64,000 nucleotides of DNA from a phage. The stretch lies in NCBI GenBank assembly GCA_018175075.1, contig GCA_018175075.1_4100.2. One strand, 5' to 3'. The translations under genes and the position numbers were made by a program. Below, piece by piece: positions 22,213-29,326 of the stretch. Numbering within the stretch: the stretch's first letter is position 1; every line of letters begins with the position of its first letter. The notes below the pieces were generated by a model that searched no databases, was not told where the DNA came from, and saw only the letters and a program-made list of their open reading frames with translations.

Positions 22213-22908
22213 ATGGTTGAACAATTCATGTTTGGTGGTTATGCTAATGGCGAAGTACGTAACATTTCTATTCCTTACGTAGTTGAGAAAGTTAATGGTT
22301 CAGAACGTACATATGATCTAGCATCTCGTATGATGCAAGACCGTATCATTTTCCTTGATACTGATTTCAATGATCAAATGGCACATATCATCAAACAACA
22401 ATTGGTATGGTTAGACTCACAAGGTGATTCCCCTATTACATTCTACATTAGTTCACCGGGTGGTTCAGTACACGCAGGTTTGGGTATTGCAGATGTTGCT
22501 AAGTCTTGTATTTCCCCAATTCGCACTGTAGTTATGGGTTATGCAGCATCAATGGGTTGCTATACACAATCTGTTATTGGGACTAAAGGTTTCCGTTTAG
22601 GTGGTAAACGCTCATACTTCATGTGTCACCAAGTAAGTTCTGGTACACAAGGTCTAATTACTGACCAGAAGATTTCACTTAAACATTCTGATGCCCTAAA
22701 CACTCTATTGACTAAAGAAATTGCAGAAGCAGTTGGTGTATCACACGAACAACTACTGAAAGATGCGGATCGTGACCTGTGGTTGAACGCTGAAGAAGCA
22801 CTCGAATACGGTGAACATGGTTTCATTGATGGTATCATCCTCGGACCACGCAACGAAGAAGGTAAGTATCTCGTCAAACGTCGCGGTGGCGTTGAAGAGT
22901 GGGTCTAA
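22213..22908 (+). CDS. clpP: ClpP-family serine protease
   Basis: ISSPGGSVHAG, catalytic GYAASMG and CHQ motifs; RBS GAGGAA. Confidence 0.75.
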   Translation: MVEQFMFGGYANGEVRNISIPYVVEKVNGSERTYDLASRMMQDRIIFLDTDFNDQMAHIIKQQLVWLDSQGDSPITFYISSPGGSVHAGLGIADVAKSCISPIRTVVMGYAASMGCYTQSVIGTKGFRLGGKRSYFMCHQVSSGTQGLITDQKISLKHSDALNTLLTKEIAEAVGVSHEQLLKDADRDLWLNAEEALEYGEHGFIDGIILGPRNEEGKYLVKRRGGVEEWV

Positions 22909-25578: not shown

Positions 25579-25956
25579 TTAACCAGGGATGTTACAATAA
25601 TACAAATCCCAAGGGTGATATTTCATTTCTCCAGTACTCAATTTAATTTTATGAAACTGGAATGATTCGGCAAATGCACTATCATCAATCTTAATACAAA
25701 AAGTATTTTTTGCTAAAGTTGGTGCAATCTCTAGTGCAGTTTTAGATGCATCTAATCTGATTTTATCTTTATCAAAACTTGTTATAGTTACAAAACGATA
25801 AACATTAAAATCAGTGTCGATAAGATCGTAAACACAACTAGAACGTTGATTAAAGATGTTCAAGTTATATTTCAATTCACCGTTTATATTAGCGGCGGTT
25901 ACACAAAAGCCGCCGATATTGAATGGTAATTTACCTTGTGCTGCTATAGCTTTCAT
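25579..25956 (-). CDS. hypothetical protein (only substantial minus-strand gene in window)
   Basis: 125-aa ORF; minus-strand RBS AGAGGAAA upstream of ATG; convergent with plus-strand genes. Confidence 0.55.
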   Translation of the reverse strand: MKAIAAQGKLPFNIGGFCVTAANINGELKYNLNIFNQRSSCVYDLIDTDFNVYRFVTITSFDKDKIRLDASKTALEIAPTLAKNTFCIKIDDSAFAESFQFHKIKLSTGEMKYHPWDLYYCNIPG

Positions 25957-26203: not shown

Positions 26204-26232
26204 TTGACTTAAGTGTTTAAGTACTATATTAT
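26204..26232 (+). promoter_or_regulatory. candidate sigma70-like promoter (TTGACT -17- TATTAT)
   Basis: -35 TTGACT at 26204-26209; flanked by TTAAGT(AC) repeats. Confidence 0.45.
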
Positions 26233-26265
26233 TTATATCTTCCTAACCAAAATTAAGGATTTGTT

Positions 26266-26874
26266 ATGAAAAGACTATGGCTTGAGGTAGTACAAGCAGT
26301 AATGCTTCTGATGTTGATAAATTTTCCAGCCAGTGCTGGTATTGAAAGTAAAAATGTGATAAAGTACAATCCTGAAACACGTAATGTATATTTCATCTCA
26401 GATATTACGGATGGGTCACTAAAGCGTATGATGGAGTTGTATGATAAAGAACACTATGATACCATTACCATCACATCGCCAGGTGGTGATTTTGATGCTG
26501 GGATTAAAATGGCAAACTTCGTTAGAGACAATGGTATAAATTTAATTGTTTCTAGGTATTGCAACTCAGCATGTACTGTGGTATTCTTCAGTGTAGCTTT
26601 TGAAAAGCGATACATGATAAATCGCTCAGTACTGGGTCTTCATAACATTTCGATTAAAAGTAATGTTACTGATGGTGATAATTCATTTGTGTCTGTAAGA
26701 CAGCTATCAACTTTTACCGAAGAAATGGCAACAAAGGTAGGTTTCCTTTTTTCACTATATGCAGCAAATGGAATCCCACCAGAAGTTCTATTTAGAGTTA
26801 GTCGTTCTCGTGGTGAAGATGTTGTAATATTAACAAAACCAGAACTGGTTTTTTACGGTTCAGTCAAACAATAA
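26266..26874 (+). CDS. secreted ClpP/S49-fold serine protease-like protein
   Basis: N-terminal signal peptide (hydrophobic core, AGI); ITSPGGDFDAG and NSAC motifs resembling the ClpP SPGG and Ser-site regions; a His is present. Confidence 0.5.
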   Translation: MKRLWLEVVQAVMLLMLINFPASAGIESKNVIKYNPETRNVYFISDITDGSLKRMMELYDKEHYDTITITSPGGDFDAGIKMANFVRDNGINLIVSRYCNSACTVVFFSVAFEKRYMINRSVLGLHNISIKSNVTDGDNSFVSVRQLSTFTEEMATKVGFLFSLYAANGIPPEVLFRVSRSRGEDVVILTKPELVFYGSVKQ

Positions 26875-26944: not shown

Positions 26945-27205
26945 ATGACAAACATCCAAAACTTGACATCTATTATTTTTTATGCTACTGTAGTAATGTA
27001 TGCTACAGTTATTTTTCTAACAGTTTTCATTTACAAAGATTATCGTAATGGCTTTATTGATCCAACTACAATGAAGTTCAATTCAAAATTCGAAGCAATA
27101 ATTTATTATGTACTATCAACTTCATACTTGGTGTGCCTAATGTTGTTAGGAGCACTAATTTATATCTTATACACAACATTATTTGCAATTGGAGCTATTT
27201 TATGA
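26945..27205 (+). CDS. small membrane protein
   Basis: Two hydrophobic segments. Confidence 0.45.
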   Translation: MTNIQNLTSIIFYATVVMYATVIFLTVFIYKDYRNGFIDPTTMKFNSKFEAIIYYVLSTSYLVCLMLLGALIYILYTTLFAIGAIL

Positions 27206-27795
27206 CCTGTATTATTGCACACACTGACGGAGTAAGTTCTTTTATTGCTGGGGATAAGTTAGGAAGCAATGGATTTACAAAAACTGTTCAAACTGAGCCA
27301 AAGGTATTCGAGAAAGAATTTATCAAGTTACATGATGATGGACTAACTAGAACTAAAGAAGTAATGGCATTGGGTTATACTACATCATTTCGTATGGGTC
27401 AGTTGTTAAATTATAACCTTAATTTACCTGAACAAGATGCTAGTCAAACATTTTCACAATATTTGGTTCTTAAAGTTATTCCAATCATTCGTCAAATGTT
27501 TAAAGAAGAATGGGGTGCACGAGATGCATCACAAGATGTAGGTGGTGGACAATTTATCATTCTCCACAATCATACAATCTATGAAGTTCAAGAAGACTTT
27601 TCAGTACTACAACCTAAAACAAGAATTACCGCAGTAGGTAGTGGGACATATCATGCAATTGCAGCAATGCAAGCATATATTGAAGTTGAGAACGAATCTA
27701 AAAAACCACTACACGAACGTATCAAATCAATTTTTAAAATTGTTAGTGATAATGTAACAAGCGTAAGCGAAGAGTTTGATGTTTTAAAATATTAA
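27202..27795 (+). CDS. HslV/proteasome-like Ntn-hydrolase peptidase
   Basis: Predicted N-terminus MTCIIAHTDG...IAGDK and AVGSGTYHAIAAMQAY, compared with E. coli HslV TTIVSV...IAGDGQ and IAIGSGGPYAQAAARA; Thr2 would be N-terminal after Met removal. Confidence 0.5.
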   Translation: MTCIIAHTDGVSSFIAGDKLGSNGFTKTVQTEPKVFEKEFIKLHDDGLTRTKEVMALGYTTSFRMGQLLNYNLNLPEQDASQTFSQYLVLKVIPIIRQMFKEEWGARDASQDVGGGQFIILHNHTIYEVQEDFSVLQPKTRITAVGSGTYHAIAAMQAYIEVENESKKPLHERIKSIFKIVSDNVTSVSEEFDVLKY

Positions 27796-27822: not shown

Positions 27823-28023
27823 ATGATGGCATACACAATTTATGAATGGGTTTTGAGTTTTTTTATAGTTTTTTCTATTGTTGTAATTTATAACAATGCT
27901 AAATGCTTATATAGAGACTTGAAATCCAATGGTTATCACAAAGATAATAATTTTATGTATGCCTATCATATTGGAATCATTCTGTTATTATCAATATATT
28001 TAATTGTTTTTTATAAGGATTGA
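27823..28023 (+). CDS. small membrane protein
   Basis: Hydrophobic ORF. Confidence 0.45.
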   Translation: MMAYTIYEWVLSFFIVFSIVVIYNNAKCLYRDLKSNGYHKDNNFMYAYHIGIILLLSIYLIVFYKD

Positions 28024-28025
28024 AT

Positions 28026-28778
28026 ATGATATCAGAAAAATTTATAAGCAATGAAGGTAAAAAGCGATTACTGATTATATCAGGTGCAGGACTTTCTGTT
28101 GAAAGTGGTATGGAACCTTTTCGATTTGATGATGGTTTGTGGGATACATTTAAAATTAATGATGTATGTAACATTGCTAGTTTAACTACGAAATATCACG
28201 TTGTTCATTCCTTCTATAATACATTACGTGTAAAATTGGGACAATGCGAACCCAATGCAATGCATTATTTTATAAAATCGTTAGAAGATCAATATGGTGA
28301 TTGCTTCCTTCATATGACTTCTAACATGGACGATCTTTATACTCGTATTGGTGGTCATGAGCTTAAACTTCATGGAAACTTGTGCGAAGTTATTGAAAAT
28401 TATAGTATCAATTCCGATGATTATAATGTTATTAACTGCGGATACGAACCATACATACCAAAACATGATGTTTTTGCTAAACCAAATGTAGTAATGATTG
28501 GAGAATATCATCGTTATGTTGATGGTATTCGCTTACCAATTTACGAAGAACGAAATAATGTGTTGAAATCTCTTAATGAAAATGATACAGTTATTGTAAT
28601 TGGTAGTAGCGATACAGTACTGGTATGGTCGAGATTAGCAGCAGCATTACCATGTTATAGTGTTAATGTTAACATTCGTAAAAATGATAATGATTTTTTG
28701 TTTAATGAAAAAGTTATCAAGCCAGCAACCAAAGCAATACCGCATCTAGAGACTATAATTAAGGAACGTATGAAATGA
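28026..28778 (+). CDS. Sir2-family (sirtuin-like) NAD-dependent protein
   Basis: GAGLSVESGMEPFR NAD-binding motif and LHGN catalytic His motif; start at ATG 28026. Confidence 0.65.
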   Translation: MISEKFISNEGKKRLLIISGAGLSVESGMEPFRFDDGLWDTFKINDVCNIASLTTKYHVVHSFYNTLRVKLGQCEPNAMHYFIKSLEDQYGDCFLHMTSNMDDLYTRIGGHELKLHGNLCEVIENYSINSDDYNVINCGYEPYIPKHDVFAKPNVVMIGEYHRYVDGIRLPIYEERNNVLKSLNENDTVIVIGSSDTVLVWSRLAAALPCYSVNVNIRKNDNDFLFNEKVIKPATKAIPHLETIIKERMK

Positions 28779-29326
28779 GTGTTAAAGAAGTTCCCTTTGG
28801 TGAATATGGCACACGTGCAAATTTTGTATTTTGTTATTTCTTTGCAAGAAAATGCAACCCTTACAAAAACTATGAGTTGAATGATATACCAGAAGTAAAT
28901 TTAGTATTACTGCAATTACGATGGGATGGTCTTCTTGGTGGATGTGGTGGAACCGTAGAAAGTACTGATATCTCACTAGAAGATGCGTTGCGTCGTGAAG
29001 TTCAAGAAGAAATGGATTACAATATTTTTGTTTCCCATCTTCGACCACTCAAAACTTTTGAAATTTACCCAGGTGCAAACAGTCACAGTTTTAGCTATGA
29101 AGTAACCTATGACGAGTTGAAACACATTAGAGATGGATACACTAATGCTAAACATGCAAGTGCAGAAGTTGCTGGTGTAAATTTATGTCATATTTCTCGT
29201 TATTCTAAGGGACAAAATCGAGAAGCGGGATATAATAATCTTATGACACAGAACTTCATCGGTACAGCAAAACAAGAATTGGAGTATCTGGTTCAAAAAG
29301 AAAACTTACTAATTAGTTATCTATAG
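28775..29326 (+). CDS. Nudix-like hydrolase
   Basis: GCGGTVE ... REVQEE matches a Nudix box with atypical spacing. Confidence 0.45.
   Translation: MSVKEVPFGEYGTRANFVFCYFFARKCNPYKNYELNDIPEVNLVLLQLRWDGLLGGCGGTVESTDISLEDALRREVQEEMDYNIFVSHLRPLKTFEIYPGANSHSFSYEVTYDELKHIRDGYTNAKHASAEVAGVNLCHISRYSKGQNREAGYNNLMTQNFIGTAKQELEYLVQKENLLISYL

Follow-up and report, generated by a model that had tools for sequence, protein, structure and literature searches.

The ClpP fold is used by several groups of proteases that differ in their catalytic residues and in the parts attached to the common domain. In ClpP the N-terminal axial loops dock an AAA+ unfoldase, either ClpX or ClpA, and the SPGG loop has the role of oxyanion hole. 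The S49 enzymes SppA and SohB work with a Ser-Lys dyad. A Ser-Lys dyad is also found in NfeD and the Pyrococcus protease 1510-N, together with transmembrane and OB-fold C-terminal parts and a stomatin partner gene. Exported ClpP-fold proteases are thus already known in the form of SppA, SohB and NfeD and, to our knowledge, all of those known outside the cytoplasm are Ser-Lys enzymes. The ClpP/crotonase fold also houses enzymes that are not proteases, which is a caveat on any assignment of a protease from the fold.

The DNA analysed here, referred to as the window, is a stretch of 64,000 nucleotides from a 121Q/PBECO4-type jumbo coliphage (Asteriusvirus), and the region is 92.6-96.9% identical at the DNA level to 22 such genomes. 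The target gene is an ATG open reading frame at 26266..26874 on the plus strand, which gives the 202-amino acid protein described in the initial annotation. The product is 96.5% identical to 121Q gp473, annotated as "protease (ClpP-like)" in both GenBank and RefSeq, and neither the gene nor its ClpP-like nature is therefore new. The frame is a real gene and not a chance one, since orthologs with 25-97% identity recur in about 50 phage records and in many metagenomic contigs. The features of the gene are as follows.

26204..26232, plus strand: candidate sigma70-type promoter, with -35 TTGACT at 26204-26209, a 17-nt spacer and -10 TATTAT at 26227-26232 (10 of 12 consensus matches; function and timing presumed)
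26255..26259, plus strand: ribosome-binding site AAGGA, 6 nt 5' of the ATG, read directly from the sequence
26266..26337, plus strand: predicted Sec signal peptide, amino acids 1-24, MKRLWLEVVQAVMLLMLINFPASA, with a predicted signal peptidase I cut after A24 (n-h-c architecture, heuristic)
26338..26871, plus strand: mature ClpP-fold domain, amino acids 25-202 (178 amino acids)
26476..26487, plus strand: S71-P72-G73-G74, aligned to ClpP SPGG and counterpart of that oxyanion-hole loop; S71, G73 and G74 are invariant
26560..26574, plus strand: C99-N-S101-A-C103, the putative nucleophile Ser101 (aligned to the ClpP catalytic Ser) between two invariant Cys that are a candidate disulfide
26641..26646, plus strand: H126-N127, both invariant, with H126 aligned to the ClpP catalytic His as the putative general base
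26872..26874, plus strand: stop codon TAA

The reading that we favour, with a probability of about 0.6, is that the gene encodes a Sec-exported, probably soluble periplasmic serine hydrolase of the ClpP fold, most likely a peptidase, which would have a Ser101/His126 pair, an SPGG loop and a C99-C103 disulfide, would work without ATP or an unfoldase, and would be made from a host-type promoter and not packaged into the virion.

On its single sequence the protein is only marginally recognisable. Pfam CLP_protease (PF00574) matches it with an E-value of 0.0074 and 16.6 bits, under the gathering score of 20.2, and two NCBIfam ClpP models score 23.6 and 17.6 bits against cutoffs of 228 and 251 (best E-value 3.3e-5), leaving it below the curated score threshold for ClpP proper (MEROPS S14/PF00574). 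Pfam NfeD1b_N gives 12.1 bits (E-value 0.14) against a cutoff of 40. A phmmer search of the PDB sequences with the single sequence returned just chance matches (GFP-like proteins and others) at E-values above 0.03, and a family profile was therefore needed. PF00574 is matched by 6 of the 17 subfamily members, with a best E-value of 2.4e-7. An hhalign comparison of the alignment of these 17 members (25-52% identity) with a set of ClpP sequences, among them the ClpP of the window itself, gave a probability of 98.9% and an E-value of 2.2e-17 over 157 columns, which cover the whole domain, with the homologous region beginning at approximately residue 37. The top matches of the subfamily profile to the PDB sequences are ClpP and the NfeD 1510-N protease only, and PHROG 26024, "protease", matches the target from end to end.

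Structure prediction gave a similar answer. A first AF2 model made from 10 close sequences was mediocre (pLDDT 71), although Foldseek nonetheless matched it to ClpP; it is superseded by a second model of the mature protein made from 29 sequences (pLDDT 91.4, pTM 0.85). Both models are of monomers. SppA and NfeD are also among the structural matches, with SppA more distant than ClpP, and the best viral match is an uncharacterised protein of phage RaK2 (TM 0.92). The entire domain has the ClpP-type alpha/beta fold, with the putative nucleophile Ser at a strand-helix elbow and the SPGG loop at the oxyanion hole, as expected of the ClpP/crotonase-fold superfamily. The family-level evidence is decisive where the single sequence is marginal, and the target is a ClpP-fold protein.

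The initial annotation had also claimed an N-terminal signal peptide, and here several heuristic criteria agree with it. The leader has K2 and R3, a hydrophobic core from V8 to F20 (best 12-residue Kyte-Doolittle mean 2.26) and then P21-A22-S23-A24 before G25, which satisfies the -3/-1 rule (Ala-x-Ala) with a Pro at -4 and is a textbook signal peptidase I site. The n-, h- and c-regions of a cleavable Sec-type signal peptide can all be assigned, F20-P21-A22-x-A24 is invariant in close orthologs, and the more distant members of the subfamily have analogous leaders that end in small residues. This call uses residue rules and hydropathy, and the presence of E7 and Q10 within the leader counts against it. 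Glu7 and Gln10 are both invariant in close orthologs, which is unexpected in a signal peptide, where only hydrophobicity is needed. From these properties we consider that the protein is probably exported via Sec and soluble in the periplasm.

The pattern extends to the wider family. Of the 188 relatives retrieved, 177 have C-x-S-x-C with the correct spacing from the preceding S-x-G-G, and in 159 of these 177 a His lies 22-26 residues after the Ser. By a crude threshold a hydrophobic N-terminal leader is present in 155 of the 177, and 36 of these leaders are lipobox-like, while many of the 22 "leaderless" relatives are fragments or borderline cases. The three ClpP-like matches that clearly have no leader do not have the Cys pair. 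Judged from this co-occurrence, with the leaders called heuristically, export and the Cys pair appear to travel together, which fits a disulfide formed in the periplasm.

The same leader could instead remain uncleaved as a signal anchor and tether the enzyme, in the manner of SppA or NfeD, to the periplasmic side of the inner membrane, where it would trim membrane-associated peptides or proteins, for example leftover signal peptides of exported phage or host proteins. A membrane-type segment of 19 residues can also be called in the hydrophobic stretch (Kyte-Doolittle 1.4-1.85), the invariant E7 and Q10 suggest that the leader does more than target the protein transiently, SppA and NfeD are known exported or membrane-bound proteases of this fold that recur among the structural matches, and tandem-domain relatives of the target recall the tandem architecture of SppA. 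We nevertheless regard an anchored enzyme as unlikely, since the core is short (approximately 13 residues) and followed by a canonical, conserved P-A-S-A|G site, the leaders of many relatives are of the lipoprotein type and certainly undergo processing, and the target lacks the Ser-Lys dyad of SppA and NfeD.

The assignment of the active site rests on the alignments with ClpP. BLASTP against the ClpP of the window, the comparison of the profile with the PDB and hhalign all place Ser101, His126 and SPGG on their ClpP counterparts. The initial annotation had compared ITSPGGDFDAG (amino acids 69-79) and RYCNSACTVVFF (amino acids 97-108) to the SPGG and GxAASMG regions of ClpP, and had made its interpretation depend on the Ser/His pair aligning with catalytic positions, which the pair does with the catalytic Ser and His of ClpP. 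For the second segment it is the position of the catalytic Ser that holds; the GxAASMG motif itself is replaced in the target family by Y-C-x-S-x-C, in which both Cys are invariant. The downstream His noted in the same annotation is His126, 25 residues past Ser101 as is usual for the ClpP catalytic His, and this spacing is equal to that in the ClpP of the window. Across 17 diverged members S71, G73, G74, C99, S101, C103, H126, N127, Y165, G169 and P171 are invariant, and an alignment of 29 sequences, distant members among them, shows no change at R115, which corresponds to an Arg conserved in ClpP.

The 17-member subfamily alignment shows no third catalytic residue that is conserved. Position 185, near the ClpP Asp, is D, E, N, S or T across the subfamily, and hhalign puts the ClpP Asp on V186. 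The subfamily also has no conserved Lys; K157 (Ser+56), the sole candidate for a dyad, varies between K, N, R, Y, M, T and S. Because there is no conserved Lys and the Ser and His fall on ClpP positions, the chemistry of the target looks like that of a ClpP-type Ser-His pair and unlike the Ser-Lys dyad of SppA and NfeD. The same lack of a Lys, together with the lower structural similarity, led us to reject membership of S49 or NfeD. Of the earlier interpretation, in which the protein was ClpP/S49-like, the ClpP fold and the register of the Ser and His are thus retained and the S49/NfeD-type membership is lost. As the third residue is not conserved, the activity might be weak or the chemistry might be other than that of a classical triad. 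Around an elbow of this kind the C-alpha atoms at i-2 and i+2 are typically near enough for a disulfide, and C99 and C103 may well form one that braces the nucleophile turn.

Two alternatives accept the export of the protein and differ in what it does there. With the ClpP/crotonase fold and a Ser-His pair, it might hydrolyse something other than protein, as an esterase or amidase whose target in the envelope would be, for example, a lipid, the acyl chain of a lipoprotein or the stem peptide of peptidoglycan. The breadth of the fold allows for this; against it, ClpP proteases are clearly the nearest relatives in both sequence and structure, the Ser, the His and SPGG are at ClpP peptidase positions, and crotonases do not have this Ser/His pair, so that such an enzyme seems to us rather improbable. 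Alternatively the protein might be a ClpP-like scaffold without catalysis, which would serve as an inhibitor or decoy by binding to an envelope protein of the host. The missing third catalytic residue would suit such a role, and other systems have inactive paralogs of ClpP, for example ClpR. However, Ser101, His126, the SPGG glycines and the flanking Cys are strictly conserved at 25-52% identity and family-wide, from which a working active site is expected, and a dead scaffold is improbable indeed.

To place the target among its relatives an exhaustive HMMER search with the family profile was made against 1.84 billion representatives, which gave 1,867 relatives at E-values of 1e-3 or less, each relative being a cluster at 50% identity. 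The members of approximately 200 amino acids form a subfamily in jumbo phages, and tblastn finds them in phages of Escherichia, Salmonella, Klebsiella (K64-1, RaK2), Erwinia, Xanthomonas, Vibrio and Bradyrhizobium. More distant relatives of approximately 250 amino acids are cellular, and one narrow peptide pattern alone gave 526 chromosomal loci in diverse Gram-negatives, including Vibrio, Shewanella, Alteromonas, Kangiella, Pseudomonas, Proteus, Massilia, Janthinobacterium, Campylobacterota, Myxococcales and Rhizobiaceae. A comparison of the neighbours of 80 bacterial loci found none conserved past genus-level synteny (the best cluster was in 7 of the 80), and the bacterial genes of the family are stand-alone. 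Longer relatives contain tandem copies of the same domain only, and other partner domains in the multi-domain relatives were ruled out, as each partner is the same domain repeated. The target thus belongs to a large, uncharacterised group of exported ClpP-like proteins that is widespread in Gram-negatives as stand-alone chromosomal genes.

Curated libraries barely detect this family: the NCBIfam model SppA_dom gives a trace match in 1 of 40 relatives, a cluster look-up returned names that are all "hypothetical" or absent, and the only names from the sources of the homology search are automated ClpP labels. The labels of the phage orthologs conflict, and range through hypothetical protein, protease, head maturation protease, ATP-dependent Clp protease proteolytic subunit, ClpP/crotonase-like domain protein and nudix hydrolase. 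Records such as OQ708376.1, PP777464.1 and PQ471516.1 show this mixture, and harmonising is needed. The ortholog in phage WPEC3, 52% identical, carries the depositors' note "protease; COG3904 superfamily". COG3904 carries the description "predicted periplasmic protein". A table entry in a genome paper puts COG3904 in category S, function unknown. A published function was not found for any COG3904 member, the literature giving one unrelated usage of the name and this bare table entry. In the literature searched nothing relevant was found on exported or periplasmic ClpP-like proteins, nor on the activity, localisation or timing of any member of the target family.

In the phages the ~200-residue subfamily holds a fixed genomic position. 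The order in Asteriusvirus is an Ig-like virion protein gene on the minus strand, the target, an 86-amino acid membrane protein, an HslV-like peptidase, Sir2 and Nudix. In a metagenomic relative that is approximately 25% identical the wider order is kept as ligase, Metallophos, ClpP, dCMP deaminase, Big_2 proteins (minus strand), target, NMNAT, NAMPT, Sir2, Nudix and PhoH. This fixed position is seen across the RaK2/121Q-like jumbo phages. Sir2 (Pfam E-value 3.7e-20) and Nudix genes (together 28020..29326, plus strand) lie shortly downstream of the target in the window, and in distant relatives (loci L002, L009 and L010) the same slot also has NMNAT-Nudix and NAMPT. As these genes occupy the downstream slot, the target borders the conserved NAD-metabolism block of these phages. 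Its neighbours are genes of nucleotide and NAD metabolism, with no scaffold or capsid gene among them.

Other genes near the target include peptidases. A canonical leaderless ClpP is encoded at 22213..22908 on the plus strand (PF00574, E-value 3.3e-41), with SPGG, GYAASMG, MCHQ and DRD motifs, and lies 4 kb upstream of the target. An HslV-like Ntn peptidase is encoded at 27202..27795 on the plus strand; it matches PHROG 1040 (E-value 4e-24) and has no Pfam match. The protein begins M-T-C-I-I-A-H, and Thr2 could be the N-terminal nucleophile once the Met is removed. The ClpP, the target and the HslV-like gene make three peptidase-fold genes within 6 kb. The 86-amino acid protein (26945..27205, plus strand) has two long hydrophobic segments and no family match; its gene overlaps the start of the HslV-like gene (ATGA). 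In close Asteriusvirus relatives this gene always separates the target from the HslV-like gene; in more distant phages it is not adjacent to the target. A functional module of the target, this membrane protein and the HslV-like peptidase was considered and rejected, as the pairing is limited to close Asteriusvirus and NMNAT/NAMPT are found instead in EJP2, L002 and L010. On the other side of the target is the Ig-like virion protein gene (25579..25956, minus strand), one of two minus-strand genes among the 111 called in the window. Minus-strand Big_2/Ig-like genes are also found in the same divergent slot beside the target orthologs at L002 and L010.

The label "head maturation protease" is attached to more than one gene of this region. 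It is carried by 121Q gp464, the ortholog of the ClpP of the window, and by PHROG 94. For this canonical phage ClpP the label is probably a mis-annotation, as the clade has its own T4 gp21-type "prohead core scaffold and protease" beside the capsid genes. Iyer et al. (PMC7824862) read the ClpP of jumbo phages as directed at the host. For the target gene itself we consider it very unlikely that the label is correct, because the ortholog gp346c is not in the list of proteins of the phAPEC6 virion proteome and because the prohead protease is a separate gene. In the same proteome the Ig-like neighbour gp347 was detected at 75% MS coverage. That the target is cytoplasmic, either as a head-maturation protease or as a second subunit paired with the canonical ClpP of the phage, is hardly credible: names on some records ("head maturation protease", "ATP-dependent Clp protease proteolytic subunit"), the ClpP gene 4 kb away and a weak match to NCBIfam Clp_rel_HeadMat (E-value 4e-4) point that way, but that match scores 20.4 bits against a cutoff of 120, the leader and its AXA site are conserved, the Cys pair tracks with export, the virion list and the gp21-type protease speak against a head function, and the N-terminal axial loops by which ClpP docks an AAA+ partner are absent.

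Because the preceding gene is on the minus strand, the target opens a new plus-strand transcription unit. A plain scan for the sigma70 consensus is of little help in this AT-rich window, with no enrichment of sites (17 against 15.5 in shuffles), and the call of a promoter is made from its conservation in orthologs instead. When the upstream regions of seven orthologs, otherwise diverged, are aligned, TTGAC is invariant and TAnnnT is found at constant spacing. Only three such motifs in the window, this one included, are intergenic and 52-73 nt upstream of a gene start, and a purine-rich GAGG/AGGA is retained upstream of the ortholog starts. The related phage PA5oct relies on the RNA polymerase of its host for transcription, and the motifs -35 TTGAC and -10 TATAATA are found there at mapped transcription starts (PMC7318152). 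It is a reasonable inference that the host sigma70 RNA polymerase transcribes the target, which would therefore probably be expressed early. The initial annotation had proposed early expression, which would follow from a host-type promoter.

Under the favoured reading of an exported periplasmic hydrolase, the host polymerase would transcribe the gene, probably early, and the 24-residue leader would route the protein through Sec, to be cut after Ala24. The mature domain of 178 residues is homologous to a ClpP subunit and would fold as one, with Ser101 as nucleophile, His126 as base and SPGG as oxyanion hole. A Cys99-Cys103 disulfide would probably brace the active-site turn in the oxidising periplasm. 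The enzyme would act without a chaperone partner, because the periplasm contains neither ATP nor an AAA+ unfoldase and the axial loops are replaced by the leader, and its likely substrates would be peptides, unfolded segments or exposed loops of envelope and periplasmic proteins. It would be neither a part of the virion nor a head-maturation protease. The roles suggested earlier, receptor shedding and superinfection exclusion, are neither supported nor excluded by these results.

A bolder form of this proposal, which we put forward tentatively and would not expect to hold in full, is that the proteins form a distinct peptidase family: exported and of ClpP type, independent of ATP and unfoldase, with a Ser-His pair that has no fixed acidic partner and a turn stapled by C-x-S-x-C. 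Such an enzyme would have been captured by RaK2/121Q-like jumbo phages, placed behind an early host-type promoter and used to cut a specific host envelope or periplasmic protein, which might be a receptor, a periplasmic defence effector or a cell-wall tether. Remodelling of the envelope from within the periplasm would, if true, be a new strategy for a phage. The fixed position of the phage copy behind a host-type promoter suggests a periplasmic role during infection, and few of the phage enzymes that act in this compartment are understood. The finding of a substrate would allow a new peptidase family to be named and the conflicting GenBank labels of the gene to be corrected, and could show by what means jumbo phages alter the envelope of the host.

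Among the systems already described, the ClpP-related head maturation proteases of phages (NF045542; PHROG 94 and 1684) resemble the target in being phage-encoded and of the ClpP superfamily of serine proteases. In contrast to those enzymes the target has a predicted signal peptide, no capsid-module context and no place in virions so far as the phAPEC6 list shows, and the weak match to the NF045542 model is shared by 26 of 40 cellular relatives. COG3904, as a predicted periplasmic group of unknown function, would fit the target family, which is uncharacterised and predicted to be exported, the link between them being the WPEC3 depositors' note. None of the dyad, the transmembrane and OB-fold parts or the stomatin partner of NfeD (NfeD1b_N) is present in the target, which ends after the ClpP-like domain. 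The dyad of SppA and SohB (S49) is not seen in the target family, in which the His at the ClpP position is invariant and no Lys is conserved. ClpP itself (S14; PF00574) is cytoplasmic, whereas the target is predicted to be exported, with a signal peptide in place of the N-terminal axial loops, and would therefore be unable to dock ClpX, ClpA or another AAA+ unfoldase; ClpP has GxAASMG and a catalytic Asp, and the target has Y-C-x-S-x-C with two invariant Cys and no conserved Asp found. What appears to be new, as judged from sequence, is thus a large family, none of whose members is characterised in the literature searched, that would be exported and yet have a ClpP-type Ser-His pair, a nucleophile flanked by Cys and no fixed third residue.
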